This document shows, in pieces, positions 12,219-63,968 of a stretch of 64,000 nucleotides of DNA. Location: contig CAVZGU010000013.1 in the NCBI GenBank assembly GCA_963774865.1, forward strand, positions 11,894-75,893. The letters are read 5' to 3'. Each line of letters starts with the position of its first letter. Positions within the stretch are counted from its first letter, which is position 1. Below the pieces are notes generated by a model. It ran no database searches, was not told the DNA's origin, and saw only the letters and a list, made by a program, of their open reading frames with translations. The position numbers and the translations under genes are program-made. Origin of the DNA: an uncultured Gammaproteobacteria bacterium. Lineage in GTDB: Bacteria; Pseudomonadota; Gammaproteobacteria; Steroidobacterales; Steroidobacteraceae.

Positions 12219-12928
<710 letters not shown>

Positions 12929-12935
12929 AGCGCAG

Positions 12936-43981: not shown

Positions 43982-43985
43982 GCTC

Positions 43986-44351: not shown

Positions 44352-44447
44352 CGTGTGAAATACTATAAGCGAGATTCCACGCCCACCGGGCGGGGTTCCG
44401 GCCGGCGCGTTATGCTTCGTCCCCCACAGTCTCCAGACCAGGCCGCT

Positions 44448-45651
44448 ATGCGTCTATCGTCCATTCCTGCTGCGCGGTGGCTTTGCAGGGCGTCGCGGCT
44501 CGCGGTACTCGCGTCGCTCGCCGCGGCGGCGGCCTGCGGGGGCAAGGCCGCCGGGCCGCCGGCACCGCAGACGGTGGCGACGCTGACCATGCGGCCTCAA
44601 CCCACGTCGCTGACGCAGGAGTACCCGGCGCAGCTCGAGGCCTCGAACACCGTCGAGATCCGCCCGCAGGTCGTCTGGAATTCTCTACCGGCAGGCGGCG
44701 CTCGAGGGCGCGCCGGTCAAGCACGGCGAAGTGCTGTTCGAGATCGATCCGCAGCCTTACGCCGCCGCACTCGCCCAGGCGCAGGCGGGGCTCGCCCAGG
44801 CGCACGCGGCAGAAGCGCAGGCCACGCGCGATTTGGCCCGTGCGCGCCCGCTGACGGCGATCGACGCGTTGAGCCAGAGGGAGCTCGATGCGGCGATCGC
44901 CGCCAATGCCTCGGCGCAGGGCCTGGTGAAGGCCGCGGAGGCGGCGGTGAAGACGGCGGAGCTCAACCTCAATTACACCCAGGTCCGCTCGCCCATCGAC
45001 GGTGTGATGAGCCGGGCGCTGATCCGCATCGGCGGAGTGGTCACCGCGTACACAACGCTGCTGACCACCGTCTACCAGACCGATCCGATGTATGCGAACT
45101 TCAGCGTCGGGGAGCAGCGCCTGCTGCAGGTGCAGCGCGAGCTGGGCCGTCCGCTCGACCAGCACAATCCCAGCCAGCGCGAGTTCCGGATCCTGCTTGC
45201 CGACGGCAGCGAGTACGAGCTTCCCGGAAAGATGAATTTCATCGACGCCGCCGTCGACCTGCGCACCGACACGCTGCGCGCTGCGCCTCACGGTGCCGAA
45301 CCCGAAGCAGTTCCTGCACGCCGGACAGTACGTCAAGGTGGTCGGTCGCGACGCGCGAGCGCCCAAACGCGCTGCTCGTTCCGCAGCGCGCGGTGCAGGT
45401 GCTGCAGGACAAGCACTTCGTCTGGATCGTGGACCAGCTCCGGCAAGGCGACAGCAGCGCGACGTCAAGATGGGCCAGCAGCAGGGCAGCGACTGGGTGG
45501 TCGAGGGGGCCTCGCGCCGGGCGACGTGGTGGTCGTGGACGGCACGCAGAAGCTCAAACCCGGCACGCCGGTGCGGGCGGAACCCCTGCGCGAGACGCCG
45601 GTGCGGGCGGCGCCGACCGGCCCGCCCGCGGCGGGGCCGCGCGCCTCATGA
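44448..45651 (+). pseudogene. RND efflux periplasmic adaptor (MexA/AcrA family), multiply frameshifted
   Basis: Lipoprotein N-terminus [30 protein letters not shown]. Segments [23 protein letters not shown]...[51 protein letters not shown] and [18 protein letters not shown] are in different frames. At least 5 frame changes. Confidence 0.8.
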
Positions 45652-48600: not shown

Positions 48601-48860
48601 GATGACCTCGTTCGCGTTCATCCTGGGCGCGCTGCCGCTTGCGATCGCCACCGGCGCCGGCGCCAGGTCGCGCGCAGGTGCTCGGCACGACGGTGGTGTT
48701 CGGCATGATGGCCGCGACCATGATCGGCATCTTCATCGTGCCGGTTTTCTACGTCGTTCTGCAGGGCCTCGTCGACCGCTTCTCCAAATCGCACGGCCGC
48801 GCGACGCCCGCGCCCGCGGCCGGCACCGCGCCCGCGGCGGGCACTGAGCCCGAGGCATGA
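45648..48860 (+). pseudogene. RND inner-membrane transporter (AcrB/MexB family), multiply frameshifted
   Basis: Starts [41 protein letters not shown] and ends VLGTTVVFGMMAATMIGIFIVPVFYVVLQGLV. Dozens of family-typical segments alternate among the three frames. At least 15 frame changes. Confidence 0.85.
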
Positions 48861-50308
48861 AGACGTGGCTGTGCACGTGCGCGCTGCTCGCCGGCTGCGC
48901 CGTCGGGCCGGACTATCATCGGCCGCCGCTCGACGTGCCGGCGCACTACCGCGATGCCGCCCCGGCGGCGGCCGGTGGCGCCGGCGATGCGGCTTCATTC
49001 GGCGACAGCGGCTGGTGGGAGGTCTATTCGGACCCGGACCTGCAGGCGCTGCTCGCTACGGCGATCAAGAACAATTACGACGTGCGGATCGCGGTGGCGC
49101 GGATCGACGAGGCGCGCGCGCAGCTCGGCTCGACAGCGCATGAACTACCTGCCGCAGGTATCGGTCGATGCGGCGGGCCGGACGCACCAAGACCTCGCAG
49201 TACGCAGCTCCTGCCCGGCGTCCCGCGAATCAACAACGAGGCTCAGGTGCAGGTCCTGGCGTCCTACCAGATCGACCTGTGGGGGCAGCTGCGGCGCGCG
49301 ACCGAGGCGGCGCGCGCCAATCTGCTCGCGTCGCAGTACGCCAAGCGCGCCGTGACCGTGACCCTGGTGGCGTCGCGTCGCCAACGCCTATTTCGCGCTG
49401 ATCTCGCTCGACAGTCAGCTCGAGATCACGCGGCGCACGGTGGTCGAGCGCGAGAAGTTCCTGGAGCTCACTCACGCCCAGCACGAGCGCGGCTACGCGA
49501 CCGGACTCGACGTCGCCACCGCCGAAGCGGATCTGGCGGCCGCCCGCGCAACCGTCCCCGACCTCGAGCGCCGGATTGCGCAGACCGAGGACGAGATCAG
49601 CGTGCTGATCGGCAGCAATCCCGGGCCGGTCACTCGCGCGCACTATGGGGAAGCCGTGCCGGAAGCGCCGCCGCGGCCGCCGCCCGGCCTGCCGTCGCGA
49701 TTGCTGGAGCGGCGGCCGGACGTGGCGCAGGCCGAGCAGGCACTGGTGGCGGCCAACGCCGAAATCGGCGTGGCCAAGGCCGCGCTGTTTCCGAACATCT
49801 CGCTCACCGGCAGCGCCGGCTCGTTGTCGGTGCCGTTCGGCAATCTGTTCACCGCGCCGGCCGCCGAATGGAGCGCCGGCGTGGGCCTGATCCAGCCGCT
49901 GCTCAGCGTGCAGTCAAACCTCTATCAGGTCGAGCTCGCCGACGCGCGGCAAGCGCGAGGCGCTGTATCAGTACGAGAAGACATGTGCAGAGCGCCTTCC
50001 AGGATGTGGCCGATGCGCTGGTCGCCTACCAGAAATACGGCGAGCAGGAGCGCGAACAAGCGAGCCAGGTCGATGCGCTGCGGCGGGCGCGCGAGATCGC
50101 GCTGGCGCGATACCGGATCGGCTATGCCTCCTACTTCGATGTGATTCAGGCCGATCGCGACCTGTTCGCGGCGGAACTGGCGCTCGCCCAGGCGTATGCG
50201 GACAACCTGAGCGCACTGGTGCAGCTGTACTCGGCGCTTGGAGGCGGATGGCAGGAGCGTCCGGCCGTGACTGCCGCGCCGCCGCCGCCGGCGCGCCCGA
50301 CGCCGTGA
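48857..50308 (+). pseudogene. RND outer-membrane factor lipoprotein (NodT/OprM family), multiply frameshifted
   Basis: MKTWLCTCALLAGCAVGPDYHRPPLDVP (lipobox LAGC). Segments ASYQIDLWGQLRRATEAARA, GYATGLDVATAEADLA, PDVAQAEQALVAANAEIGVAKAALFPNISLTGSAG and YRIGYASYFDVIQADRDLF are in different frames. At least 6 frame changes. Confidence 0.8.
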
Positions 50309-51406: not shown

Positions 51407-52105
51407 ATGTACCGCATTGCACCCTCCATTTTATCGGCTGACTTCGCCCGCCTGGGCGAAGAGGTGAAGAGCGTCATCGCGGCCGGCGCGGACTGGATCC
51501 ACTTCGACGTGATGGACAACCACTACGTGCCGAATCTGACCATCGGTCCGCTGGTGGCGAAGGCGCTGAAGCCTTATTGCGTGCGGCCCGAGGGTGCGGC
51601 CGTGCCCCTGGATGTGCATTTGATGGTCCAGCCCGTCGATGAGTTGGCCGGTGCCTTCGTCGAAGCCGGCGCCGATCTCGTGTGTTTTCACCCCGAAGCA
51701 TCCAATCACATCGACAGGACCTTGCAGCTCATCCGCAGCGGCGGATGCAAGGCGGGGCTTGCGTTCAATCCGGCCACGCCGCTCGGCGCGCTCGAGTACG
51801 TGATCGACAAGGTCGATCTGGTGCTCATCATGAGCGTCAACCCGGGATTCGGCGGCCAAAGCTTCATCGACTCGGCACTGCGCAAAGTCGAGAGCGCCCG
51901 CAAATTGATCGACGCCACCGGCCGAGACATCAGGCTCGAGGTCGACGGGGGCATCAAGGCGGAGAACATCCGCCGCGTCGCCGAAGCAGGGGCCGATACG
52001 TTTGTCGCCGGCAGCGCCATCTTCGGCAAGCCGGATTACAAAGGCGTGATCAACGCCATGCGCATCGAGTTGAGCCGCGTCTCGCCCGCGTCCCGGGTCG
52101 CCTGA
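51407..52105 (+). CDS. rpe: Ribulose-phosphate 3-epimerase
   Basis: Intact 232-aa [47 protein letters not shown]. Confidence 0.95.
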
Positions 52106-52106
52106 C

Positions 52107-52340
52107 GTGGCCGCGCCGATGTACTCGATTCCCGGCGCACCTGCTCCTGCGTCGCCGGCCGATCAGCCGGCCGCTGCCGTGCAGAACGCATCGGACGCGC
52201 GCACCGTGAACGGCATACTGGCGCAGAGCCAGGTCGGTGCGGTCAGGGATGGGCTCGATCGCGATCTCATCGGGCTCGCGCCGGTCAAGAGCCGTATCCG
52301 CGCGAGCCGGGTTTTCGAGCTCGCCGCGGCTCAGAAGTAG
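52107..52340 (+). pseudogene. cbbX: CbbX (red-type RuBisCO activase) remnant: N-terminal ~60 aa joined in frame to a C-terminal tail; AAA+ module absent
   Basis: The 77-aa ORF contains [16 protein letters not shown] (remembered CbbX N-terminal motif LDRxLIGLxPVKxRIR) followed directly by [12 protein letters not shown], which resembles the remembered CbbX C-terminus ..IRASRVF... There is no Walker A or B. Confidence 0.5.
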
Positions 52341-52359
52341 ACCTGAAGGAGGCCAGACC

Positions 52360-53439
52360 ATGCACCTTGGACGCACGACGCTCTCGAAATTTCTGATCCA
52401 GCAGCTCAACGGCATCGAGGGCGCCACTGACTTGGGCGCGTTGCTCGTCGATGTGGCCGCAGCCGTCAAGGCGATTTCGGCGATGACCGCCAAAGGGGCG
52501 CTCGGCGACTTCCTCGGCGCGCAGGGCTCAAAGAACGTGCAGGGCGAGACCCAGCAAAAGCTCGATGTACTGGCGGATGAAGTGATGATTCACAGCTGCG
52601 ACTGGGGCGGGCTGGTCGCCGGTATGGCCACCGAGGAGCGCGATGATCCTTATCCGATCCCGAGCGAGTACACCCGCGGGCGCTATTTGCTGGTCTTCGA
52701 TCCGCTCGACGGTTCGTCGAACATCGACGTCAATGTCTCGGTCGGCACCATCTTCTCGGTGATGCGCCACAACAAGTCCGAGCCGCCCACCGTGGCCGAT
52801 TACCTGCAGCCCGGGCGGCAGCAAGTGGCCGCGGGCTATGCCCTGTACGGTCCCGCCACGATGCTGGTGATCACCGTCGGCAAAGGTACGCACGGCTTCA
52901 CGCTCGATCGGGAAATCGGCAACTTCATCCTGACACATGAGAATCTGCAGATCCCCGCCGAGACCAGCGAGTTTGCCATCAACACCAGCAACGCCCGGTT
53001 CTGGGAGCCGCCCGTGCACCGGTACGTGACCGAGTGCCAGGCCGGCAAGACCGGCGATCGCGGGCGCGATTTCAACATGCGTTGGATCGCCTCGATGGTC
53101 GCGGAGGTGCACCGGATTCTGATGCGCGGCGGCGTGTTCATGTACCCGAAGGACACGAAGGATAAGACCAAGCCGGGACGGCTGCGCCTGCTGTACGAAG
53201 CGAGCCCGGTCAGCATGCTCGTGGAGCAGGCCGGAGGCCGCGCCACGACGGGAAACCAGCGGGTGCTCGAGATCATGCCTGAGAGCCTGCATCAGCGCGT
53301 TCCGCTGATTCTGGGCTCGCGCAACGAAGTCGAGCGCATCGAGCGCTACCACGACGAGCATGCCAAGGGCACCGACCGTCCGTTTACCTCGCCGCTCTTC
53401 AACGAGCGCTCACTGTTCCGACCCGACACGCGAAACTGA
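52360..53439 (+). CDS. fbp: Fructose-1,6-/sedoheptulose-1,7-bisphosphatase, class 1 (CbbF-type)
   Basis: ATG at 52360 follows [61 protein letters not shown]. Confidence 0.9.
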
Positions 53440-53451
53440 GCGGGATATCTC

Positions 53452-54327
53452 ATGTCCACCAAGCACCCTGTAATTGCAGTGACCGGATCTTCCGGGGCCG
53501 GAACCACGACCGTGATGAAGGCCTTCGCGCACATCTTCCGGCGTGAAAACATCAAAGCCCAGGTGATCGAGGGCGATTCTTTCCACCGCTACAACCGCGT
53601 CGAGATGCGCGAGCGCGTGAAGGCGGCCGACAGCGGCGCGAGCCCACCGATCAGTCACTTCGGGCCCGAGGCGAATCTGCTGGGCGAGCTGGCCGACACC
53701 TTTGCGGAATACGGCGCGACCGGCCGCGGCAAGGTGCGCCGCTACGTCCACGACATCGCCGAGTCCAAAGAGCTCGGCAGCGAACCGGGAACATTCACGG
53801 ACTGGCAGGCCATGCGGACGGACAGCGATCTGCTGTTCTACGAAGGCCTGCACGGCGGGTATACCGGTGACGGGGCCGATGTGGCGCGCCACGTGGATCT
53901 GCTCGTCGGAGTCGTTCCCATCATCAATCTCGAGTGGATTCAGAAACTGCATCGCGACCGCAATCTGCGCGGCTACACCCAGGAAGCGGTGGTGGACACC
54001 ATTCTGCGGCGCATGCCCGACTACGTGAACCACATCTGCCCGCAATTCAGCCGCACGCACGTCAACTTCCAGCGCGTGCCCACGGTGGACACCAGCAACC
54101 CGTTCATCGCCAAGGATATCCCGAGCGCCGACGAGTCGATGGTCGTGATCCGCTTCGCGAATCCCAAGGGCATCGATTTTCCATATCTGCTGTCCATGCT
54201 GCGCAACTCGTGGATGAGCCGGCCCAACAACATCATCGTGCCCGGCGGTCAGATGGGCCTCGCGATGCAATTCATGTTCACGCCGATGATCCTGCGGCTG
54301 ATGGATCTGAAGAGGCGCGCGCAGTGA
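53452..54327 (+). CDS. prk: Phosphoribulokinase
   Basis: Intact 291-aa [41 protein letters not shown]. Confidence 0.9.
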
Positions 54328-54355
54328 GGGGCTCCCAGGTAAGAGTGCATCCACG

Positions 54356-56387
54356 ATGAATGCCATAATCAAGCCCCTCCCCGTCGAGCGCAGCAAGCTG
54401 GCCAATGCGCTGCGCTTCCTGGCGATCGACGCCGTCGAGGCCGCGAAGAGCGGCCATCCCGGCATGCCCATGGGCATGGCCGAAATTGCCGAGGTGCTCT
54501 GGCGCCGATTTCTCAAGCACAATCCGGCGGACCCGCACTGGCCCGATCGCGATCGCTTCATGCTGTCCAATGGTCACGGCTCGATGCTGCTGTATGCGCT
54601 GCTGCACCTCACGGGCTACGCGCTGCCGCTGGAGGAGCTGAAGCGCTTTCGTCAGCTGCACAGCAAAACCCCCGGTCATCCCGAAGTGGACGTGACGCCG
54701 GGCGTGGAAACCACCACGGGCCCGCTCGGCCAGGGATTGGCGAATGCGGTCGGCATGGCTCTGTCCGAGCAATTGCTGGCGGCCCACTTCAACCGGCCCG
54801 AGCACACCATCGTCGATCATCGCACCTGGGTATTCGTCGGCGATGGATGCCTGATGGAGGGCATCAGCCACGAGGCCTGTTCACTGGCCGGCACGCTGGG
54901 GACTGTCGAAGCTGATTGCCGTCTACGACGACAACGGCATCAGCATCGATGGGCACGTGGAGCATTGGTTCACCGACGATACGCCCAAGCGCTTCGAGGC
55001 GTACGGCTGGCGCGTCATCCGCAACGTCGATGGCCACGACACGGCGGCCGTCGAGGCCGCTTTGAAGAAGGCGTGCAAGCCGGGCGGCCAGCCGACCCTG
55101 GTGTGCTGCAAGACCGTCATCGGCAAGGGAAGCCCGAACAAGGCCGGCACGCACGATGTGCACGGTGCCGCGCTGGGCGCTGCCGAGGCCGCCGCGACCC
55201 GCGCGGCGCTCGGCTGGACGGCCGGGCCATTCGAGATCCCGGAGGAGATTCGCGACGCATGGGATGGCCGCGCGATTGGCGCCAAGCGGCAAGCCGACTG
55301 GCAGCGCCGCTTCGCGGCTTACGCGCAGGCGCACCCCGGTCTCGCCGCCGAGTTCGAACGTCGCGTGTCGTCGCGCCAGTTGCCTGCCGGCTGGCCGACT
55401 GCGACCACAGAAGCGCTCGCCAAGGTGGTCGCGAGCCGCGCCGGCGTGGCATCACGCAAGGCCTCGCAGAACGCGCTCGAGGCCCTGCAGCCGCTGCTGC
55501 CCGAGCTGCTGGGCGGCTCGGCTGACTTGGGCGGGTCGAATCTCACCGAAGTCAAGGGCAGCGTTCCGGTGCGCGGCGATCATTGGGGCAACTACATCAA
55601 CTACGGTGTGCGCGAGTTCGGCATGAGTGCCGTGATGAACGGGATCGCATTGCACGGGGGGTTCATCCCCTACGGCGGAACCTTTCTCACGTTTTCCGAT
55701 TACAGCCGCAACGCCGTGCGCATGTCCGCGCTGATGCGCAAGCGCGTCATCTATGTGTTCACCCACGACAGTATCGGGCTCGGCGAAGACGGTCCGACGC
55801 ATCAGCCGATCGAGCATGTTTCCAGCCTGCGATTGATCCCCCACAACGCCGTGTGGCGGCCTTGCGATGCCGCGGAGACCATGATTGCGTGGATTGCGGC
55901 CATCGAACGGCGCGACGGCCCGACGTGCCTGATCCTGTCGCGGCAAAACCTGCCGCACTTCGATCGTCAAGCGCAGCAGATCAGCGATATCCGCAAAGGC
56001 GGGTATGTGTTGGCCGACGGTGAGGGCGCCGCCGTGACGCTGCTCGCCACCGGTTCGGAAGTGGCGCTGGCCATGCAGGCACGCGATGCGCTGGCCGCGG
56101 AGGGAATATCCGCCCGTGTCGTCTCGATGCCGAGCTGCGATGAGTTTGACCGGCAGAGCGCCGAGTACCGGGCGAGCGTGCTGCCGCGCGCAGTGCCGGT
56201 GCTCGCCATCGAGGCGGGCGTCACAGCGCCTTGGCGCGCCTATACCGGCTTCGACGGCGACGTAATCGGCATCGATCGATTTGGCGAATCCGCGCCGGCC
56301 GCACACGTTGCCGAGGCGCTCGGCTTGACAGTGCAGGCGGTTACCGCGCGTGCGCGACGGCTCGCGCAAAGCGCGCGGCGGCAATGA
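54356..56387 (+). pseudogene. tkt: Transketolase, single frame change at the G4 run 54898-54901
   Basis: N-terminal part ...[20 protein letters not shown]...[21 protein letters not shown]. It continues as [23 protein letters not shown] in the frame of ORF 54957..56387. G3 instead of G4 would restore [16 protein letters not shown]. Confidence 0.9.
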
Positions 56388-56416
56388 TTCAATAGACGAC
56401 CCATCAGGAGCATCCA

Positions 56417-57454
56417 ATGGCCCTCATATCCCTACGCCAACTGCTGGATCACGCCGCTGAACACAGCTATGGCGTGCCCGCATTCAACGTGAACAACCTC
56501 GAGCAGATCCAAGCCATCATGGAAGCGGCGGAAGAGGCCCGCAGCCCGGTGATCCTGCAGGCCTCGGCCGGAGCCCGCAAGTACGCGGGGGAGCCCTACC
56601 TGCGCCACATGGTGCTGGCGGCGGTCGAATCCTGTCCAAGCATCCCGGTGGTCCTGCACCAGGACCATGGCGCCAGCCCGGCCGTGTGCATGCAGTCCCT
56701 TCGCTCCGGATTCACGAGCGTCATGATGGACGGGTCGCTGAAGGAAGATGCGAAGACGCCGGCCAGCTACGAGTACAACGTCGATGTGACGCGCCGCGTA
56801 TGCGAGATGTCGCATTGCATCGGGGTCTCGGTCGAGGGAGAACTGGGCTGCCTCGGATCGCTGGAAACCGGCGAGGCCGGCGAGGAGGACGGCGTGGGAG
56901 CGGTAGGCAAGCTCACGCATGACATGATGCTCACCGATCCGGCCCAGGCCAAGGACTTCGTGGCGCGCACCGCGGTCGATGCGCTGGCGATCGCCATCGG
57001 CACGAGCCACGGCGCCTACAAGTTCACGCGCCAACCCTCGGGCGACATCCTGGACATCGACCGGATCGCGAAGATCCATAAAGCGGTGCCCAACACCCAT
57101 CTGGTGATGCACGGCTCCTCGAGCGTGCCGCAGGAATGGCTGGCCATCATTCGCGAACACGGCGGCGACATCAAGGAGACTTACGGGGTACCGGTGGAGG
57201 AGATCCAGCGCGGCATCCGCAGCGGCGTGCGCAAGGTGAACATCGATACCGACATCCGCCTTGCGATGACCGGCGCGATGCGCCAGGCGTTCGACAAAGA
57301 CCCCAGCGAGTTCGATCCGCGCAAGTCGCTGATTGCGGCCAAAAAGGCCGCGCGCGCGGTGGTCAAAGCGCGCTTCGAGGCCTTCGGGTGTGCCGGGCAG
57401 GCCGACCGCATCCAGCCCGTCCCGCTCGAGATGATGGTCAAGCGCTACAACTGA
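56417..57454 (+). CDS. fba: Fructose-bisphosphate aldolase, class II (Calvin-cycle subtype)
   Basis: Intact 345-aa [57 protein letters not shown]. Confidence 0.9.
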
Positions 57455-57462
57455 AGCGGCGC

Positions 57463-58224
57463 TTGCTCAGGGCGATTCTTTGGGACGTCGACGGCACTCT
57501 GGCGGAGACGGAGCGCGATGGTCATCTGGTTGCCTTCAACCAGGCTTTCGCGGCACTGAATGTGCCGTGGCGCTGGAGCGAGGAGCGGTATGGAGAACTG
57601 TTGGCCGTGACGGGCGGCCGTGAGCGCCTGCTGCACGACATGCAAAGTCAGGACCGTGCGCCCGCCGATCTTGAGGAGCGCCGGAGTTTGGCCGAGCGGG
57701 TGCATCGCCTCAAAAACGAGCTTTACGCCCGAATCGTTGCCAGCGGCGAGCTGCCGCTGCGCGAAGGGGTTCGAGACTTGCTGGCGGACTGCGAACGCGC
57801 GGGGGTTCCAATGGGTATCGTGACGACCACGAGCCGCTCGAACGTGGAGGCGCTGCTCGAGACCCATCTCGGCAAGGACTGGGAATCGGCGTTCGCGACG
57901 GTCGTGTGTGCCGAAGAGGCGCCGAGAAAAAAGCCCGATCCGCAAGCGTACCATCTCGCCCTCGAAGCGCTGCAGGTGCCCTCGCAGCGGGCCGTGGCGA
58001 TGGAGGATTCGCCGGCGGGCGCGTCCGCCGCGCAGGCCGCCCGCGTGCCTGTGATCGTTTCCCGCAGCTATTACTTCGCCGCGGCCGAGTGCCGCAGCGC
58101 GCTCGCCGTCGGCCCGTCGCTGGGCCGAACGGAGGGCTGGAATCCGCCAGCGGACGCGTACTCCAAGCGCATCGGTCTGGATCAAATCAGCCGCTGGTAC
58201 GCGCGAAGCGCGTGGGTGCAGTGA
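57463..58224 (+). CDS. cbbY: HAD-superfamily phosphatase, CbbY-like
   Basis: AILWDVDGTLAETERDGHLVAFNQAFAALNVPWRWSEERYGELLAVTGGRERL is typical of CbbY. The start is uncertain: TTG 57463 or CTG 57451, with no ATG in frame. Confidence 0.7.
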   Translation: MLRAILWDVDGTLAETERDGHLVAFNQAFAALNVPWRWSEERYGELLAVTGGRERLLHDMQSQDRAPADLEERRSLAERVHRLKNELYARIVASGELPLREGVRDLLADCERAGVPMGIVTTTSRSNVEALLETHLGKDWESAFATVVCAEEAPRKKPDPQAYHLALEALQVPSQRAVAMEDSPAGASAAQAARVPVIVSRSYYFAAAECRSALAVGPSLGRTEGWNPPADAYSKRIGLDQISRWYARSAWVQ

Positions 58225-58407: not shown

Positions 58408-58695
58408 GCGTATCCTTTCTCATTCGCAACACTGCGAGGAGTTCGCGGCGCGATGAGGGCGCGCTCTGGATATGAGCGTTCATCCGTAGTAGAGTTCCTG
58501 AGCTTTTGAAGGTGCGAACATTTGCGGCAATTGGGTACGTCGGCCTTGTTGCCATGTGGCCACTTCGCTCATCTCCTCTGAGGTGACGTTGGACGCCCTA
58601 GTTATAATGGCGATGGCGGCGCTGCGAGGCAAGGTGTGAGCGGTAACGTTGGATCGCAGCCACGTTGCCTCAAAAAGGAAGGGGGGTCTTTATTT

Positions 58696-59445
58696 ATGCG
58701 TTCATTCCTCGGTGGGTCCATCGTCGCTTCGCTGCTGGCGGGCGTCGCAGTGCTGTTTTCCTTCAATGCGCTTGCCATGGAGATGCCCGGCTTGCCCGAC
58801 GCGAACATTGCCAATGGCAAGAAGATTTTCAATGAGGGCAAGGGCGACACGGTACCCGCCTGCATGACCTGTCATGGAGCCGGCGGCTGGGGTATGGACG
58901 CCATGGGGGCCCCCCGTCTGGCGGGTATCGGCTATCCTTACGTGGTCAAGCAATTGTCCGATCTGGCGAGCGGCAAGCGCACGCCTGCGGGGGCCGGCGC
59001 CGTCATGGTGGTATTTGCCGGTGGGTTGACCGAGCAGGAGCGGCGCGATGTGGCCGGCTATGTCGACACGCTGGGCGGCCCGCCGGATTTGTCCGATCTC
59101 AAAGCACTGAAGGAGTCCGGGACGGCAATCGGCGAGAGATACCTTGGTGAGGCCATTGTAAAATATGGGGTTTATGGCAAGGTGTCGGCCTGCTCTTCGT
59201 GCCATGGCTTTAACGGTCGCGGAGCGGCGCCGCTGTTTCCGGTGATCGGGGAGCAGAAGTACACGTATCTCGTGACGCAGCTGAACTCCTGGCGCGACGA
59301 AAGCCGCACCAATGATCCCTACGCCATGATGCGCAAGATGGCGCATAATTTGACTGATGCGGATATCGCCAACGTCGCCACCTTTCTGGCATCGGCGCCG
59401 CCCACTACGAGCGGGAATACCATGATTCCGGTAACTGATGAATGA
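58696..59445 (+). CDS. Dihaem c-type cytochrome (c4-like), secreted
   Basis: ATG at 58696 follows AAGGAAGGGGGG. A signal peptide and two haem motifs, CMTCH and CSSCH, in two similar halves. Confidence 0.8.
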   Translation: MRSFLGGSIVASLLAGVAVLFSFNALAMEMPGLPDANIANGKKIFNEGKGDTVPACMTCHGAGGWGMDAMGAPRLAGIGYPYVVKQLSDLASGKRTPAGAGAVMVVFAGGLTEQERRDVAGYVDTLGGPPDLSDLKALKESGTAIGERYLGEAIVKYGVYGKVSACSSCHGFNGRGAAPLFPVIGEQKYTYLVTQLNSWRDESRTNDPYAMMRKMAHNLTDADIANVATFLASAPPTTSGNTMIPVTDE

Positions 59446-59517: not shown

Positions 59518-60096
59518 ATGAAGAACAGCGGCCTGCGATTGGGCGAAAAGGTGCTGTTCGGCATTGCCGCGGCTTTCGTGCTGGTTGCGGTCATGAGCTT
59601 CATTGCCATGGAGGTCTACCGCGTGCACTCCGGCAAGAAGATGTATGCGTCGAGCACGCATTTCGACTTTTCGCAGGAAGGGCTCGTTGGGTCGGAGCGC
59701 TTCCGCGATCTGGGCTGCACCAGCTGTCATCGCGCGGTGCGCAACGGCACCAACAACGGGGTGAACCTGGACGGCATCGGTTCCAAGCGCAGTCTGGATT
59801 ATCTGATCGCCTTCCTGCATAAGCCGGAGGCCACCTACGGGTCCCCAACGATGGACCATGGCCCCGACAAGGGCGCGGCCTATGTCGCAAGTTTGCCGGA
59901 GCAGGACCTGCATTCCCTGGCCGTTTTTCTCTCGGAGTTGAAGGCGACCCAAGGATCGCCCGATGCGCGCCTGCCGTCGGAGGGGCGCTCCGGCTTCATC
60001 GATGAAATGGTGAAGATTTGGGCGCCGTCCACATGGAAGTCGCAATACCATGATGTGCGAGAGGAAGGTAAACCCGGGAGCAGCGCAAATCGATAG
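59518..60096 (+). CDS. Membrane-anchored monohaem c-type cytochrome (FixO/CcoO- or NorC-like layout)
   Basis: One N-terminal TM helix (VLFGIAAAFVLVAVMSFIAM), then GCTSCH about 45 aa later, then NLDGIGSKRSLDYLIAFLHKPEATYGSPTMD. This resembles the remembered CcoO pattern (CxxCH ... L..vG.r.s..w...hl.nP......S.MP). Confidence 0.65.
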   Translation: MKNSGLRLGEKVLFGIAAAFVLVAVMSFIAMEVYRVHSGKKMYASSTHFDFSQEGLVGSERFRDLGCTSCHRAVRNGTNNGVNLDGIGSKRSLDYLIAFLHKPEATYGSPTMDHGPDKGAAYVASLPEQDLHSLAVFLSELKATQGSPDARLPSEGRSGFIDEMVKIWAPSTWKSQYHDVREEGKPGSSANR

Positions 60097-60097
60097 C

Positions 60098-60607
60098 GTG
60101 ACCGAAACACCCGCATCCCCGCCCGGGATCGACGACCGCGAATACACGCGCATGACACTGCTGTTCGTTTATGCATGCATCGTGTACTCCATCATCGGCT
60201 TTTCATGGGGGGCCGTGATGGGAGGCGTCCCGGTGCTGCGCATGTTCGTCGATACGGCGCCCCACGGGCACTTGATCTTGCTGGCGCATGGACACATCAA
60301 CCTCCTGGGCTGGGTTGAAATGGCCATTTTCGGCTCAATTTATTATTTCATTCCGCGCCTTGTGAAGCGTCCGATCTACAGCCTGCGCCTGGTCAAGGTT
60401 CACTTCTGGATGCACAACATCGGGCTCGTCTCGATGGTTGTTCTGTTCACACTGGCAGGCGTCATCGGCGGCTATGATCCGGGTCCGCAGGTTGAGCGCA
60501 CCGTTTCACACCTGATGGCCGCGGTCGGCTCCTTCGGTATGCTCGTGCTGCTGGCGAATATCATTTGGGGATACAACATCTACATGACGAGCCGAGGGAA
60601 TACGTGA
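60098..60607 (+). CDS. 4-TM membrane protein resembling one third of a cbb3-type haem-copper oxidase subunit I (paralogue 1)
   Basis: ORF 60050..60607. Likely starts are GTG 60098 (2 nt after the upstream TAG) or ATG 60152. Four hydrophobic helices. Core LAHGHINLLGWVEMAIFGSIYYFIPRLVKRPIYSLRLVKVHFW (60281-60409). The stop overlaps the next start (GTGA). Confidence 0.6.
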   Translation: MTETPASPPGIDDREYTRMTLLFVYACIVYSIIGFSWGAVMGGVPVLRMFVDTAPHGHLILLAHGHINLLGWVEMAIFGSIYYFIPRLVKRPIYSLRLVKVHFWMHNIGLVSMVVLFTLAGVIGGYDPGPQVERTVSHLMAAVGSFGMLVLLANIIWGYNIYMTSRGNT

Positions 60608-61119
60608 GACCCTTGCAGGCCGCACGGGTACTGGCGGCGGTCCTGACGCTGATGGCGCTGAGCGCCTGCGACAGTCGCGCGCAGCAGTCCCACAATGCTT
60701 CGCTCGCCCTGCAGATCGGCGAGCCGGCACCGCGGGTGCACACGAAGACTCTGAACGATGTCGGCGGGGATGTTTCCCGCATTACCACGTATCGCCAGCC
60801 GGACGAGCGGATGTATCAATATTCCGTGGACCAGGCGCTCGTCAGCGGCAAGCCGGTCTTGCTTGAATTCGCCACGCCGGCGCACTGCACTCCCTGTGAT
60901 CGGCAGCTGCAGATGATCAAGTCGCTGTTGCAGAAGTACCAGGGGAAGATGATTTTCATCCACATGGATCAATACGACAATCCGGAAGCCTACAAGGCGT
61001 ACCATGTGCCCGGCGACCCGTGGACATTCGTCATCGACCGCCGGGGCGTCGTACGCTTTGAGCAAGCCGGCTCGATGCTGTACGGCGAGATCGAAGATGC
61101 CATCCAGAGTGCGCTCTAG
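60604..61119 (+). CDS. Thioredoxin-fold lipoprotein (TlpA/ResA-like thiol:disulfide oxidoreductase)
   Basis: GTG at 60604 gives VRPLQAARVLAAVLTLMALSACDS (lipobox LSAC). Active-site-like VLLEFATPAHCTPCDRQ (CxxC). Confidence 0.65.
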   Translation: MRPLQAARVLAAVLTLMALSACDSRAQQSHNASLALQIGEPAPRVHTKTLNDVGGDVSRITTYRQPDERMYQYSVDQALVSGKPVLLEFATPAHCTPCDRQLQMIKSLLQKYQGKMIFIHMDQYDNPEAYKAYHVPGDPWTFVIDRRGVVRFEQAGSMLYGEIEDAIQSAL

Positions 61120-61136
61120 CCCTTAGGTGCCGGCGC

Positions 61137-61622
61137 ATGAGCGTTGGAAGACCCTTGAGCGTTGGAACACGCTACACGCTGAGCCGTGATTATCGGGGGA
61201 TGTACTGGGATGCGCTGCTGTATGTGCCCACCGTTTCGGCGCTGGCGGTTTTTGCCACCAGCAGCTGGTACGACGGCAAGACCCCGGTGGCGTACTTGCT
61301 CGGCTTCCTGGCGTGTTTCTTTCTAATCGCGGGAGCCAATCGCATCCTGACGACGCGTCTGATGTGGCTGCCCTCCGCACCGGTCGCCATCGAGACGCGG
61401 GCCAACGCCGCCGACTTGATCCTGAAGAGCGGTGAGGTCATAAAATTGCAGCGCGACGTGAAATTGTACCGGGATCGAGCGGGCCGATCGTTCGGCCTGA
61501 CGGGAGTGAGCGAGGACGGGACGCGCCGCCAGTTCGTTTTCCATCGCGGGCAATTCAAACAGGACAGCGATTTTCAAGCGGTGATGAATTGCTACGACCG
61601 CGCTCAAGCTGGCAAGGCATAG
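61137..61622 (+). CDS. Hypothetical membrane protein (2 TM plus a soluble C-terminal domain)
   Basis: Intact 161-aa ORF. Hydrophobic stretches LLYVPTVSALAVFATSSW and VAYLLGFLACFFLIAGA. No known motif. Confidence 0.45.
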   Translation: MSVGRPLSVGTRYTLSRDYRGMYWDALLYVPTVSALAVFATSSWYDGKTPVAYLLGFLACFFLIAGANRILTTRLMWLPSAPVAIETRANAADLILKSGEVIKLQRDVKLYRDRAGRSFGLTGVSEDGTRRQFVFHRGQFKQDSDFQAVMNCYDRAQAGKA

Positions 61623-61691
61623 ATCATTAAACTGCGCGCACTGCTTTTCAACTCCCGCGGCGGCCTGCTGCTGCTGCTGCCGTGGGCCATT

Positions 61692-63131
61692 TTGGTTGGA
61701 CTCATTTTGCGCACGGGCCCCTACGGGCTCAGCGAGGAAGGGGCCAAAGCGTTGCTGGTCGCGTGGTCCGTCGGCGATGCGGTGGCGAGCGCCGCTTTCA
61801 CCCTGGGGGCGCCTGACATCCGCGCGATATTTTTCCTGCCGCTGGGCTTTTTGCTGCCCGGCCGGGTGATTGCCGCCAAGGTGCTGACGCTGCTGATCAC
61901 GGCGGGAGCGGGAGTCGCTCTGTATCGCTGGCGCCGCCGCGACGACCAGGTCGAAGCCGCATTGCTGGCGACCGGACTGCTGCTGATCGCACCGCTGAGC
62001 ATTGACAGCATAAACTCGCTATCCGCAGCGCCTTTTTTGCTTGCGATTTTCGGAGCGGCCGCCTGGCTGAACCGCATGCTGCTGGGCGAGCGCGCAACAT
62101 TCGGCGGCTCGTTCTTCGCCCAACTGCTTGCTTGTGCGGCTGCGGTCTCTTTGCATCCTGCGGGCATCGCTTATCCGGCAGTTCTCTTTGTCACCTGGTG
62201 GCGCCACCCGCCGGACCAGCGGCACCGCGGACATTTTTTGGCGGGCATTCCGCTGGTGGTGCTGCTCGTGCTGACGATGCGACTCGGCTGGAGCGGCATG
62301 GTCTGGTGGCAGAATCCGCTGCCCGCCGCCGCGGCCGTTTTTCTCGGCAGCCGCGCCGAGGATGCGCTGTCCAGCGTGGAGTGGCTCGGTGGCCTTGCGC
62401 TGATCGCCTTGACCGCGGCGGTGGCGCTGCACGAGGGCGGGCGCCTGCTGGCAGATCTGACCGGCGGCGCGCTGCTTCTCGGCGTGCTGTGCGGGGCCGT
62501 GGCCGCCGATCGAACCTGGGGGATGCTGATGCTTGCCCTGCTGCTCTACGGAGGGATGCCGTGGCTGCTGCGCTCGTGTGCGCCGCTCGCCGGGCGCGGC
62601 CTGCTCGTCGAGAGGGGATGGCTCTGGCTGCTGCTGCTGCTGATCTGTACCGCGTTCATGCGCAGGGACCGGAGCGACTATGAGGCGGGACACCGCCATC
62701 TCCTGTCCGCCGAGGACCAGTTGATCAGCGACTTTGCAGAAGGCCTAAGCAGTATTCGGAGCGGCAACGGCGCGGGACAGGGACATTCTGCGGCGCCGAT
62801 CCTCGTGGCGAGCTCGTGGCCCGCACGTACCTCGATCGCCTGTCGATGCGACGGACTGCCGCTGCCTCCGGCGGCGAAGGATCCGGAAAGCCAGCTGGCC
62901 ATGATGCGCGGCGTATCGTACGTGATACTTGCCGGCAACACGGACAATCTCGCCCTGGCGAGAAATTTTGCGCAGCTTGGGCAGCGGATCGAGGTCCTTT
63001 CCCGGCAGCCTGGCGGCGTCATCCTGCACTTCAGGGCGCCGGCAGCGCAGCCGCCGGTAGTGCAGCCGCCCGTAGTGCAGCCGCCGGTAGTGCAGCCGCT
63101 GGCAGTGCAGCCGACCGCAGTGCAGCTCTGA
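61692..63131 (+). CDS. Large polytopic membrane protein (>=9 TM) with a C-terminal periplasmic-type domain and a (QPPVV)n tail; GT-C/ArnT-like topology, function unknown
   Basis: Intact ORF in the same frame as, and immediately after, the upstream stop (61620-61622). The true start may be upstream of TTG 61692 (ATC/ATT/CTG codons only). Many Leu/Ala-rich helices, and charged loops (WWRHPPDQRHRGH). Confidence 0.5.
   Translation: MVGLILRTGPYGLSEEGAKALLVAWSVGDAVASAAFTLGAPDIRAIFFLPLGFLLPGRVIAAKVLTLLITAGAGVALYRWRRRDDQVEAALLATGLLLIAPLSIDSINSLSAAPFLLAIFGAAAWLNRMLLGERATFGGSFFAQLLACAAAVSLHPAGIAYPAVLFVTWWRHPPDQRHRGHFLAGIPLVVLLVLTMRLGWSGMVWWQNPLPAAAAVFLGSRAEDALSSVEWLGGLALIALTAAVALHEGGRLLADLTGGALLLGVLCGAVAADRTWGMLMLALLLYGGMPWLLRSCAPLAGRGLLVERGWLWLLLLLICTAFMRRDRSDYEAGHRHLLSAEDQLISDFAEGLSSIRSGNGAGQGHSAAPILVASSWPARTSIACRCDGLPLPPAAKDPESQLAMMRGVSYVILAGNTDNLALARNFAQLGQRIEVLSRQPGGVILHFRAPAAQPPVVQPPVVQPPVVQPLAVQPTAVQL
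63048..63122 (+). repeat. Five tandem 15-bp units (consensus CAGCCGCCGGTAGTG) encoding QPPVV QPPVV QPPVV QPLAV QPTAV
   Basis: Read directly. The units start at 63048, 63063, 63078, 63093 and 63108. The last two have diverged. Confidence 0.9.
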
Positions 63132-63205
63132 CGCGGCGGGTCTTTGCCCTGCATTCGCTGCCGTGCTAATGTTGGATGAGCGTATCGGGAATAGGAGCGA
63201 GCGAC

Positions 63206-63313
63206 ATGATGGACGTGGGTTATATGTTGATTCCGGTGGTGCTTTTCGTGGGCGGTATTTTGGTGTCTAGTGCTCTGTTCAAGCTCGCCATGACGCGGGT
63301 CGAGGAAAAATAG
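63206..63313 (+). CDS. 35-aa single-TM micro-protein
   Basis: ATG at 63206 has AGGAG 8 nt upstream. Translation MMDVGYMLIPVVLFVGGILVSSALFKLAMTRVEEK. It is below the ORF-track cut-off. It recalls the small CcoQ/CcoS-type peptides of oxidase operons by size and topology only. Confidence 0.45.
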   Translation: MMDVGYMLIPVVLFVGGILVSSALFKLAMTRVEEK

Positions 63314-63342
63314 GCAAGCGCTAACCGCTGTCGAATCGTCCG

Positions 63343-63370
63343 CCGCGGTTCTCAGGCTGCTGAACCGCGG
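63343..63370 (+). other. Stem-loop CCGCGGTTC-N10-GAACCGCGG (9-bp stem), followed by a second hairpin CCGGCC-gta-GGCCGG at 63393-63407
   Basis: Read directly in the 118-bp spacer between the micro-ORF and paralogue 2. There is no U-tract, so this is not a canonical intrinsic terminator. Confidence 0.3.
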
Positions 63371-63431
63371 TAAGCGTGGGGTTCTTAGGATACCGGCCGT
63401 AGGCCGGGGGAATCCGACGATTTTCATATCT

Positions 63432-63968
63432 ATGTCCAATGTAACTCCGGCCGATGGCACCTTCCATCGCAGCTTGATCAAATTCTTGGCTGTCTCCGCG
63501 CTCTCGCTGCTCATCGGTACGATTCACGGCATGCTGCAGGTCCTGCCGCCGATCAGGGCCTGGCTCGACTCGATTGGCAGCCCCTATGGTGGACCGGGGC
63601 ACATGATCGATCCGCTGGCCCATGCCCACATCAATCTCGTCGGTGGCGTCGTCATGTTGGTCATGGGCGTCACCTACTACCTCCTGCCGATTCTCAGCGG
63701 ACGGTCCATCTACTCCGTGCGGCTGGTACAGCACTCCTTCTGGTTGATGACGGTGGGGGTTTTCAGCTTTTATGCCGTGCAGATGCTATTCGGCGTTTGG
63801 GAGGGACACTTGATGTTCCGCGATCCCGCGGCGTGGCACGCCGTCCACCATTGGTACGGTCGGTTGGTTGCAGTCGCAGCGACGGTCATGGCAGCCGGAT
63901 TCGTGGCCTACTTCGCCAACGTCGCGCTCACCATGCTGTCCCGCGCCCCTGCCGATGCGGCAGGTTGA
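63432..63968 (+). CDS. 4-TM membrane protein resembling one third of a cbb3-type haem-copper oxidase subunit I (paralogue 2)
   Basis: Intact 178-aa ORF with four hydrophobic helices. Core LAHAHINLVGGVVMLVMGVTYYLLPILSGRSIYSVRLVQHSFW (63615-63743) is 24/43 identical to paralogue 1. Confidence 0.6.
   Translation: MSNVTPADGTFHRSLIKFLAVSALSLLIGTIHGMLQVLPPIRAWLDSIGSPYGGPGHMIDPLAHAHINLVGGVVMLVMGVTYYLLPILSGRSIYSVRLVQHSFWLMTVGVFSFYAVQMLFGVWEGHLMFRDPAAWHAVHHWYGRLVAVAATVMAAGFVAYFANVALTMLSRAPADAAG

Follow-up and report, generated by a model that had tools for sequence, protein, structure and literature searches.

Two predicted four-helix members of the haem-copper oxidase subunit I superfamily encoded beside c-type cytochromes in a Steroidobacteraceae genome

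Results

Genes at the locus

The window, a stretch of 64,000 nucleotides from an uncultured gammaproteobacterium of the Steroidobacteraceae, carries near its end two small genes for four-helix proteins, which we call mini-HCO A (P1) and mini-HCO B (P2) after the haem-copper oxidases (HCOs). They lie among genes for c-type cytochromes and other membrane or periplasmic proteins:

58636..59445, + strand: dihaem cytochrome c, c4/Cyc1 family, with a signal peptide or membrane anchor
59518..60096, + strand: monohaem cytochrome c, anchored by an N-terminal transmembrane (TM) segment; a single base separates its stop from the start of P1
60098..60607, + strand: mini-HCO A (P1), 169 aa, four TM helices, H64-x-H66 on TM2
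60604..61119, + strand: TlpA/ResA/DsbE-type periplasmic lipoprotein with a thioredoxin fold, a CTPC motif and the lipobox LSAC
61137..61622, + strand: conserved protein of 150-160 aa with two predicted TM helices; its C-terminal domain is soluble
61692..63131, + strand: polytopic membrane protein, 479 aa, with a C-terminal PPVVQ tandem repeat
63206..63313, + strand: single-TM micropeptide, 35 aa, encoded shortly before mini-HCO B
63432..63968, + strand: mini-HCO B (P2), 178 aa, four TM helices, paralogue of P1, H64-x-H66 on TM2

Both mini-HCO reading frames had been reported in a first-pass annotation of this DNA, and we found them at the same coordinates, on the + strand and with products of 169 and 178 aa (510 and 537 nt). 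P2 starts at ATG 63432. For P1 we used GTG 60098, one base past the upstream stop; the choice between this codon and ATG 60050/60053 is uncertain. The start must lie upstream of residue 19, as shown by those homologues that lack a Met there. BLASTP aligns P1 and P2 with 36% identity over 120 aa (E = 8e-16), and our recount of their common core confirmed 24 identical residues out of 43. Judged by their sequences, they are genuine paralogues. P2 is 100% identical to the database cluster P0121.

For the neighbouring genes, synteny was counted in 86 sequences, i.e., 85 loci and the window.

Dihaem cytochrome c: The protein carries two CxxCH motifs (CMTCH and CSSCH) and matches Pfam Cytochrom_C twice. 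Its relatives in the PDB are a cytochrome c4 (6q2u, E = 6e-22) and the c4/c-552 of A. ferrooxidans (1h1o, E = 4.9e-20). The true start is likely ATG 58696, which is preceded by the ribosome-binding site AAGGAAGGGGGG. The gene lies directly upstream in 81 of the 86 sequences, and the syntenic Tenderia gene Tel_00405 bears the label 'Cyc1' (PMC5371394).

Monohaem cytochrome c: A single CTSCH motif follows a hydrophobic N-terminus, and Pfam Cytochrom_C is matched with 27.8 bits. The topology resembles that of CcoO and NorC, but the protein falls outside both families; the Pfam search gave no FixO match and the PDB search no sequence relative. The gene precedes mini-HCO A in 83/86 sequences.

Thioredoxin-fold lipoprotein: The gene begins with a GTG that overlaps the stop codon of P1 (GTGA). 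The protein matches AhpC-TSA, Thioredoxin and Redoxin in Pfam, ResA and DsbE (weakly) in NCBIfam, and thioredoxins in the PDB. The gene was found in 82/86 sequences.

Two-TM protein: Searches of Pfam and NCBIfam gave no match. The gene directly follows the thioredoxin gene in most sequences (72/86).

479-aa membrane protein: This protein possibly has a GT-C/PMT_2-like glycosyltransferase fold, as the homologue in the relative L004 weakly matches PMT_2 (E = 6e-4, below the cutoff). A sequence search of the PDB found no relative. The gene occurs near the operon, on either strand, in 62/86 sequences.

Micropeptide: The ATG is preceded by GGAG. By tblastn, the peptide is encoded at the equivalent position in 19 sequences (18 loci and the window), with 43-94% identity in the loci. 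We regard it as a candidate small subunit.

The sequence past the end of the window is inferred from the close relatives L004-L016. There, the genes that come after mini-HCO B lie on the opposite strand and encode a 124-aa lipoprotein, a 136-aa two-TM protein and a CcoG-like polyferredoxin (the latter seen in L004 and L006). Next come a HiPIP-like protein and actAB1B2CDEF; in this lineage, all of these genes fall beyond the window's end. A third mini paralogue, which would have pointed to a fixed heterotrimer, was considered and dismissed: what looked like third copies proved to be full-length CcoN genes, leaving families A and B only. Between 58 and 64 kb, a scan for promoters and terminators performed no better than on shuffled sequence.

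Relationship to haem-copper oxidase subunit I

According to the first-pass annotation, each protein resembles one third of HCO subunit I, with likeness to three regions of the cbb3 oxidase subunit CcoN. Profile searches bear this out. Pfam COX1 (PF00115, gathering score 34.8) is matched by P1 with 56.2 bits and by P2 with 36.6 bits, both matches being confined to profile positions ~308-407 of 436. In a phmmer search of the PDB, P1 matches cbb3 CcoN (3mk7_A) with E = 5.6e-13, and stretches of it align separately with CcoN residues 16-107, 205-246 and 331-407, which fall on all three of the regions named. When a profile of 20 single-unit sequences is aligned with the CcoN repeats R1, R2 and R3 by HHalign, the scores are 107, 94 and 206, each with the histidines in correct register, whereas the CcoN repeats reach only 52-69 against one another. 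HMMER and HHalign agree in matching P1 to each of the three pseudo-repeats.

The AlphaFold2 model of P1 (pLDDT 90.6) shows the four long helices that had been expected, plus one short loop helix. It overlays one third of cbb3 CcoN with a query-normalised TM-score of 0.77-0.80, and every confident Foldseek match is an HCO subunit I or NorB. On the basis of these sequence and model comparisons, we assign P1 and P2 to the HCO subunit I superfamily, each being one four-helix pseudo-repeat of the three. At 169 and 178 aa, neither contains twelve core TM helices in one polypeptide, and both score far below the cutoff of the NCBIfam ccoN equivalog (TIGR00780; 47.3 bits for P1 and 35.7 bits for P2, cutoff 583). 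Since matches to DUF2871 (see below) are sub-threshold as well, the proteins stand outside any characterised family. With the mini-HCO units, a known superfamily gains a novel architecture.

Conserved histidines and topology

H64 and H66 are invariant within families A and B; among 20 diverse single-unit families, H66 is found in all and H64 in 18. The pair aligns with H345/H347 of CcoN (3mk7_A) and with H355/H357 of P0318. In terms of the three repeats, the H-x-H of TM2 aligns with the haem ligand of CcoN helix II, the CuB ligand of helix VI and the H-x-H of helix X, H66 being aligned with the helix VI His. Drawn as a helical wheel, the alignment of TM2 has conserved stripes on opposite faces (H64-N68-G71-M75-Y82 and L62-H66-L69-V73). 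The TM2-TM3 loop is rich in basic residues, and therefore the His pair is predicted from sequence and model to lie ~7-9 residues beneath the periplasmic surface, as in HCOs.

A CuB or FeB site would consist of the helix VI His and an HH pair on helix VII. The earlier statement that there are no adjacent histidines of this type is correct for P1, which has no HH pair, but not for P2, which has H139-H140. This pair lies elsewhere than the helix VII-equivalent position that provides CuB ligands, and H139 alone is conserved in family B. Because a single unit has no CuB-type three-His site, canonical O2 reduction chemistry is not expected.

Further conserved residues are H56, H102 and H106 in family A, and H32, H57, M58, D60, E124 and H139 in family B. 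In family A, H102, H106, N107, N154, N160 and T164 form a polar column in the cytoplasmic half of the bundle, and H102 aligns with H243 of the CcoN 'VHFW' motif, which we take to be part of the proton-uptake pathway of cbb3 oxidase. These residues could belong to a cofactor-free structural or proton/ion-conducting subunit of an alternative complex III (ACIII) or cbb3 supercomplex, in which H-x-H would serve proton transfer or metal-ion sensing; the single-TM peptide and the two-TM protein of the cluster are also typical of supercomplex accessory subunits. We consider such a role very unlikely, as the most conserved residues are the two histidines that serve every HCO as ligands of haems and CuB, and dedicated cytochromes c are encoded directly upstream. 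To our knowledge, HCO biology offers no hint of a lone repeat unit that conducts ions.

Distribution and integrity of the genes

Relatives of 166-195 aa (up to ~222 aa in family B) are present in at least 521 species genomes, with 747 cluster matches for P1 and 1047 for P2. The named lineages among the 80 best-matching genome loci are Gallionellaceae, Ferrovum, Steroidobacteraceae, Chromatiales, Thiotrichales and Burkholderiales.

Short CcoN-like frames might be remnants of ccoN or norB, pseudogene fragments or products of assembly errors. Other genes of the window, namely acrB and a transketolase gene at ~54.9 kb, seem frameshifted, and the assembly therefore does carry indels; moreover, relatives of P1 and P2 are named 'cbb3-type cytochrome c oxidase subunit I' in the databases. 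Yet the relatives are consistently short, separate genes which keep their length and their neighbours in hundreds of species of Beta- and Gammaproteobacteria. The adjoining genes abut both ends, leaving no space for missing helices; conservation is strong throughout the alignment; and P1 matches CcoN repeats 1, 2 and 3 rather than a piece of one. Comparative sequence data already refute the fragment explanation, and we give it practically no credence. The database name probably inflates ccoN counts in metagenomic surveys.

Genomic context and a possible role in oxidase assembly

The cluster is adjoined by ACIII and a HiPIP-like gene in 30/85 loci; in 23/85, the operon is closely followed by a full-length CcoN gene. 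ACIII is the neighbour in this lineage and in Ferrovum, cbb3 oxidase in Gallionellaceae. A CcoG-like homologue, divergent and nearly full length, accompanies mini-HCO B in 29/36 loci.

Part of this context would suit a biogenesis factor, i.e., a scaffold or chaperone that mimics one CcoN repeat during assembly of a cbb3-type or other oxidase. The units would then hold haem b or copper, or dock on nascent CcoN, together with the thioredoxin-like reductant and the CcoG-like protein as cupric reductase. The translational coupling of the TlpA/ResA-like lipoprotein to P1, the CcoG homologue and the nearby CcoN genes are all in favour, and from its sequence the periplasmic H57-M58-x-D60 motif of family B could bind copper. 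However, the operon is headed by two dedicated c-type cytochromes, which is unusual for a chaperone, and ACIII rather than ccoNO is the neighbour in this lineage and Ferrovum. The CcoG-like protein matches TIGR02745 (E = 2.4e-37) with 129 bits only, far under the cutoff of 317, and is similar to the NapH/MauN quinol-dehydrogenase ferredoxins as well. The lineages named among the 80 best genome loci (see above) may also speak against a biogenesis factor, and well-studied cbb3 assembly (ccoGHIS) requires, as far as we know, no mini-HCO-like protein. We therefore judge a biogenesis role to be unlikely.

Fused three-unit relatives

Chloroflexia proteins of 625-730 aa (e.g., P0241 and P0420) contain three tandem mini-HCO units, and compact three-unit proteins of 390-420 aa also occur (e.g., P0261). 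In the six best-scoring proteins, the repeats match the mini-HCO profile over its full length with 49-125 bits per repeat. The AlphaFold2 model of a fused Chloroflexia protein (pLDDT 88.7) adopts the whole 12-helix oxidase fold and aligns with whole CcoN over ~535 columns (target-normalised TM-score 0.72-0.76). As in the mini-HCOs, the His motif is on helix 2 of every repeat: the conserved histidines are position 2 in R1, positions 1 and 2 in R2, and position 1 in R3, where position 2 is Gln.

The predicted fold supports a trimeric assembly of the single units. This Rosetta-stone argument is indirect because the fused Chloroflexia proteins are family B relatives, not orthologues.

Discussion

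Proposed assembly and electron transfer

From sequence and models, we lean slightly towards the view that the mini-HCOs are the haem b-binding, oligomeric core of a small, cytochrome c-fed respiratory complex with an HCO-like assembly. A haem-binding oligomer had been put forward as speculation in the first-pass annotation, and it gains indirect support from the near-invariant H-x-H of diverse single-unit families, from the conservation on both faces of TM2 and from the predicted fold of the fused three-unit relatives. In this model, the units, most likely three of them, would come together in a core of 12 helices like that of an HCO, with the TM2 helices in the centre. Adjacent TM2 helices would hold a b-type haem between them, one unit contributing His64 and its neighbour His66, repeating the CcoN arrangement in which haem b lies between helices II and X. 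Electrons would enter from the periplasm, passing from the c4-like cytochrome to the anchored cytochrome c and on to haem b. The complex would operate in the respiratory chain beside ACIII and HiPIP (this lineage and Ferrovum) or beside cbb3 oxidase (Gallionellaceae), as an electron relay or a small terminal reductase.

Since bis-His ligation leaves no coordination site of a haem free, a homotrimer with three such haems would lack both an obvious catalytic site and a known acceptor. Three further observations speak against a respiratory role: the thioredoxin-like and CcoG-like neighbours are of the classic oxidase-biogenesis types and fit assembly at least as well, ACIII adjacency extends to 30 of the 85 loci and no more, and in Ca. 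Tenderia the truncated CcoN genes are moderately expressed and unresponsive to electrode potential (see below).

Origin of haem-copper oxidases

The pseudo-threefold symmetry of oxidase subunit I has long been taken to hint at triplication of a four-helix haem protein. We know of no free-standing HCO unit that has been studied as a test of this origin. The mini-HCO units are abundant, conserved and placed in respiratory operons, and separate lineages fuse three of them in one chain. Together with the transcription of the Tenderia counterparts (see below), this makes the origin question accessible to experiment, via oligomeric state, haem sites and ancestral-like symmetry.

In a bolder reading of the sequences, which we regard as improbable, the mini-HCOs are little-changed descendants of the pre-triplication HCO ancestor, and their symmetric homo- or hetero-trimers with interfacial haems would form, with the two cytochromes c, a minimal reductase or 'alternative complex IV' of iron-oxidising and electroautotrophic bacteria. 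The single-unit profile is closer to each CcoN repeat than the repeats are to one another, and the His register puts the low-spin haem and binuclear sites on two of the three trimer interfaces. Mini-HCOs may also have a secondary origin by truncation of repeat 3 of a C-family oxidase; profile scores are no substitute for a phylogeny.

Whatever their origin, the clusters are candidates for an as yet unassigned step in neutrophilic iron oxidation or electron uptake, because they lie beside ACIII, HiPIP or cbb3 oxidase, include a Cyc1-like cytochrome and occur in iron-oxidiser-like autotrophs.

Comparison with known systems

DUF2871: This 4-TM family of unknown function (PF11070) is similar in size and has four helices. 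P1 scores 13.7 bits (E = 0.078) and its relatives at most 21.2 bits, below the gathering threshold of 27.4 bits; the sub-threshold matches (13.7-21.2 bits) are full-length and recur for P1 and several single-unit relatives.

NorC-NorB: In cNOR, a gene for a membrane-anchored monohaem cytochrome c is immediately upstream of that for the HCO-type membrane subunit, as in our cluster, and neither system uses copper in the oxidase fashion. NorB (4xyd_A) is among the structure matches of P1 (TMq 0.74), with a weak sequence match (E = 4e-4). NorB differs in its 12 helices and in its FeB site of three His and Glu; a single mini-HCO unit shows no site of this kind.

Fused three-unit proteins: They share the misleading database name, and in Chloroflexia their context is also respiratory, comprising a bc complex and a COX1+FixO oxidase. 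They differ in that their units are diverged and joined in one chain, with an extra C-terminal membrane domain, and belong to a different phylum.

CcoN: The best match in both sequence and structure is CcoN (PDB 3MK7, 8SMR, 6XKW). The mini-HCOs share with it the helix X H-x-H, the 'YYF.P+..RP.YS.RL...HFW' motif of helices VI-VII and the 'LGWV' of helix X, and their His pair is at equal depth near the periplasmic side. As in cbb3 systems, c4-type and membrane-anchored c-type cytochromes are co-encoded as the predicted electron supply, but these partners fall outside the CcoO and CcoP families. The mini-HCOs have four helices instead of 12 and no conserved CuB HH pair.

Slit_1321-1324: This cassette of Gallionellaceae, described as cytochrome b, an extracellular hypothetical protein, and monohaem and dihaem cytochromes, was considered as the same cluster and set apart by its description, as the order differs. 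The expression supplement for Sideroxydans ES-1 contains no annotation that matches our cluster.

Ca. Tenderia electrophaga: In the literature accessible without subscription, our searches on a four-helix or triplication origin of HCOs, free-standing units, DUF2871, and alternative complex IV or partial cbb3 found only the Tenderia papers to be relevant. The 'cbb3-1/cbb3-2' region of this organism contains two 'truncated CcoN' genes, ALP51724.1 and ALP51744.1 (bioRxiv 10.1101/2022.05.06.490989; PMC5371394, mSystems 2017). The first-pass annotation had not recognised the proteins as a described family; this is right in so far as no characterised family includes them, but the cluster had already received this label. 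The module's gene order is found in the window and the 85 loci, Tenderia being compared by order and size: dihaem cytochrome, monohaem cytochrome, truncated CcoN, thioredoxin and hypothetical proteins, and later a CcoG-like protein beside the second truncated CcoN. For the lineage of the window, the CcoG-like part is known from the relatives L004 and L006. With 525 and 519 nt, the two Tenderia genes match those of the window (510 and 537 nt) in size. The two modules of Tenderia are separated by a full ccoNO, whereas here ACIII follows, as judged from close relatives. The counterpart genes are transcribed (PMC5371394 supplement), the truncated CcoN genes at a moderate level and without response to electrode potential (PMC5371394). 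Both papers annotate the genes only and do not deal with a single HCO repeat, oligomers, conserved ligands or characterisation; their authors put forward the idea of a complex in the membrane, described as 'a sort of alternative complex IV' (bioRxiv 10.1101/2022.05.06.490989; PMC5371394).

Similarity of P1 and P2 to oxidase subunit I

Two open reading frames, which the first-pass annotation had read as single repeats (one third) of subunit I of a haem-copper oxidoreductase (HCO), are present as described:

60098-60607, + strand: P1 (mini-HCO A), 169 aa; its GTG start lies one base past the upstream stop
63432-63968, + strand: P2 (mini-HCO B), 178 aa

P1 and P2 are paralogous (BLASTP, 36% identity across 120 residues, E = 8e-16) and share a 43-residue core that is identical at 24/43 positions, as had been noted. 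Pfam COX1 matches P1 with 56.2 bits and P2 with 36.6 bits (gathering score 34.8), in both cases over profile positions ~308-407 of 436. With the NCBIfam ccoN, CtaD and related models, P1 and P2 give domain-level matches only, far under the cutoffs. In phmmer against the PDB, P1 matches CcoN, the 12-helix catalytic subunit of cbb3 oxidase (3mk7_A, E = 5.6e-13), and CcoN residues 16-107, 205-246, and 331-407 each align separately to P1. These are the three CcoN regions named in the first-pass annotation, whose observation of a paralogous 4-TM pair is confirmed. The similarity of both proteins to oxidase subunit I has firm statistical support.

The AlphaFold2 model of P1, built from a 23-sequence alignment, has a mean pLDDT of 90.6 and consists of four long helices (14-43, 57-88, 96-126, and 130-166) and an additional short one within the first loop. 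All high-probability Foldseek matches of this model in the PDB are HCO subunit I or NorB. The top matches are cbb3 CcoN chains, with a query-normalised TM-score of 0.77-0.80 and an rmsd of ~3.2 Å over ~170 columns. Arg and Lys abound in the TM2-TM3 loop (PRLVKRPIYSLRLVK); therefore, this loop and both termini are predicted to be cytoplasmic, which would place the His pair of TM2 7-9 residues below its periplasmic end. Judged from sequence and model, this is likely the depth of the HCO haem ligands.

For comparison with the oxidase repeats, 13 canonical CcoN-length proteins were cut into R1 (helices I-IV), R2 (V-VIII), and R3 (IX-XII), and the profiles were compared with HHalign. The single-unit profile scored 107 with R1, 94 with R2, and 206 with R3, and the repeats scored 52 (R1-R2), 69 (R1-R3), and 61 (R2-R3) among themselves. 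As profile scores are no phylogeny and the single units may alternatively have arisen by truncation of an R3, an ancestral-like unit is unproven. Within the limits of sequence and structure prediction, phmmer, HHalign, and Foldseek support the reading of P1 and P2 as one third of an HCO.

Family size and conserved residues

Roughly 750-1050 clusters were retrieved for each of P1 and P2. The relatives measure 166-195 aa for P1 and up to ~222 aa for P2, all carry PF00115, and their usual name in the source databases is “cbb3-type cytochrome c oxidase subunit I.” When each species was represented by a single genome, the scan yielded at least 521 loci encoding a mini-HCO relative. Among the matches listed, the closest is from a Steroidobacteraceae MAG (96% identity), and other hosts are Ferrovum, Gallionella, Sideroxydans, Nitrosomonadales, Burkholderiales, Chromatiales, and Thiotrichales. 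P1 and P2 are members of a large family and not gene fragments; that they are gene remnants is extremely improbable.

H64 and H66: Families A (P1-like) and B (P2-like) share 25 invariant positions, including A63-H64-x-H66-x-N68-L69-x-G71. Among 20 diverse single-unit families drawn from the exhaustive HMMER search, H66 occurs in 20/20 and H64 in 18/20. A cofactor-free structural or proton-conducting subunit is an unlikely role for the mini-HCOs.

Other His residues: H56, H102, and H106 are additionally conserved in family A, and H32, H57, and H139 in family B. The H139-H140 pair of P2 is not conserved as such in family B.

Fused three-unit relatives

The exhaustive search gave 1567 representatives at E < 1e-3. 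The best are proteins of 625-1122 aa in which the whole single-unit profile is matched three times. The group of 625-730 aa is from Chloroflexia; its helix 2 motifs in the successive repeats are x-T-H, H-A-H, and H-A-Q, with H81, H250, H252, H417, and Q419 invariant. An AF2 model of one fused protein (pLDDT 88.7, pTM 0.85) matches entire CcoN chains with a target-normalised TM-score of 0.72-0.76 over ~535 columns; therefore, the 12-helix architecture of the oxidase can be formed by three such units. A bc complex and a COX1+FixO oxidase adjoin the fused gene in one Chloroflexia genome. Compact three-unit proteins of 390-420 aa also exist, for example, the database protein P0261 with HAH, HFH, and HAH.

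Three-repeat HCO-like examples:
Database proteins: P0241-P0246, P0253, P0259, P0261, P0277
Locus L086: 8001-9974

The compact forms have H-x-H in all three repeats, and other three-repeat proteins (860-1120 aa) carry long C-terminal extensions. There are thus-far uncharacterised families of 12-TM HCO-like proteins that consist of three near-equal repeats and lack the CuB HH pair. The single-repeat and independently fused forms vary the architecture of a known superfamily in a new way.

Gene neighbourhood

Synteny was assessed by tblastn of the window proteins against 85 loci and the window itself (86 sequences). A core of dihaem cytochrome c (81/86), anchored monohaem cytochrome c (83/86), mini-HCO A, thioredoxin-like lipoprotein (82/86), and a 2-TM protein of 150-160 aa (72/86) is nearly universal. 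The window's dihaem protein is a member of the cytochrome c4 family, as is A. ferrooxidans c4 (1h1o, E = 4.9e-20), and the stop codon of P1 shares bases with the start codon of the thioredoxin gene (GTGA). A weakly PMT_2-like membrane protein of 470-495 aa is usually close by (62/86). In the window, a 15-nt DNA repeat at ~63040-63128 codes for the tandem PPVVQ PPVVQ PPVVQ PLAVQ PTAVQ at the C-terminus of this protein (479 aa).

Mini-HCO B lies within 10 kb in 36 loci, in 29 of which a divergent CcoG/NapH-like polyferredoxin (TIGR02745, E = 2.4e-37, under cutoff) and two small proteins accompany it on the opposite strand. A conserved single-TM peptide of 34-35 aa precedes mini-HCO B in 19 sequences (18 loci and the window); it may have the role of a small subunit, comparable to CcoQ or CcoS. 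Adjacent to the cluster, 30 loci from Steroidobacteraceae and Ferrovum carry a HiPIP/Iro-like gene and actAB1B2CDEF (alternative complex III, ACIII); a full-length CcoN follows instead in 23 loci, mostly Gallionellaceae.

63206-63313: micropeptide, 35 aa, single-TM (MMDVGYMLIPVVLFVGGILVSSALFKLAMTRVEEK), directly 5' of mini-HCO B
L004 (locus of a relative, region past the window 3' end) 12908-13261: HiPIP-like protein with Tat signal, between the CcoG-like gene and actA

The L004 protein weakly matches the model of the A. ferrooxidans iron oxidase Iro (NF041615, E = 3.8e-5), which links the neighbourhood to electron carriers of the iron-oxidation type.

The thioredoxin-like and CcoG-like neighbours and the adjoining ccoN would suit a biogenesis scaffold, the main rival explanation; the dedicated cytochromes and the ACIII context speak against it, and we regard it as possible but rather improbable.

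Directly upstream of the cytochrome/mini-HCO cluster lies a Calvin-Benson cycle operon with rpe, fbp, prk, tkt, fba (class II aldolase), and a HAD phosphatase gene, which suggests an autotrophic lifestyle of this Steroidobacteraceae-like organism. The transketolase gene of this operon (54356-56387) is interrupted by a frameshift or an assembly indel near 54.9 kb, so that it reads as two ORFs that overlap in different frames. An AcrB/AcrD-type efflux pump gene (43803-48847) is apparently broken as well, which hints at further assembly indel errors.

51407-58224: Calvin-Benson cycle operon
54356-55525: transketolase ORF 1, Transketolase_N positions 3-172
54957-56387: transketolase ORF 2, rest of transketolase
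43803-46061 and 46967-48847: ORFs of the AcrB/AcrD-type pump
48857-50308: outer-membrane efflux protein gene, after the broken ORFs

Previous reports

A comparative-genomics preprint on Tenderiales lists the order [quoted passage not shown] reports conservation of this region among some freshwater iron oxidisers, and proposes “a sort of alternative complex IV” (10.1101/2022.05.06.490989). A metatranscriptome paper from 2017 gives read counts for the cluster genes, among them Tel_00415 (525 nt) and Tel_00520 (519 nt), and labels the highly expressed Tenderia dihaem gene Cyc1 (PMC5371394). In neither are the proteins characterised or identified as a single HCO repeat, and beyond these Tenderia papers, full-text literature searches turned up nothing on free-standing HCO units. 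Zetaproteobacteria genome bins are reported to contain 3-6 “ccoN” and only 1-4 “ccoO” genes (PMC5520029, Table 2); the surplus may be mis-annotated mini-HCO genes. Publications mention the mini-HCO family in passing without characterising it, and its names in databases are systematically wrong.

Proposed function and comparison with HCOs

The data above establish the homology, fold, conservation, and synteny of the mini-HCOs; for the binding of haem, the oligomeric state, the path of the electrons, and the end reaction, we infer the following. The units would assemble, with trimers as the most likely form, into an HCO-like core that holds haem b between neighbouring TM2 helices via H64 and H66. 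Electrons would pass from the c4/Cyc1-like cytochrome to the anchored cytochrome c and on to this core, which would act in a chain beside ACIII/HiPIP or cbb3. This is the best supported explanation, and we consider it somewhat better than evenly probable.

In HHalign, H64 aligns with the helix II His (low-spin haem ligand), H66 with the helix VI His (CuB ligand), and both jointly with the helix X H-x-H. In a symmetric trimer, the position-1 His of one unit would meet the position-2 His of the next at each interface. One interface would then correspond to the low-spin haem site of HCOs (helix II position 1 and helix X position 2), a second of the three to the binuclear site (helix X position 1 and helix VI position 2). 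Such an assignment fits an ancestral-like unit without proving it. The conserved TM2 positions form two stripes on opposite helix faces, H64-N68-G71-M75-Y82 and L62-H66-L69-V73, as expected for a helix that, like helix X of HCOs, is buried between partners or cofactors on either side.
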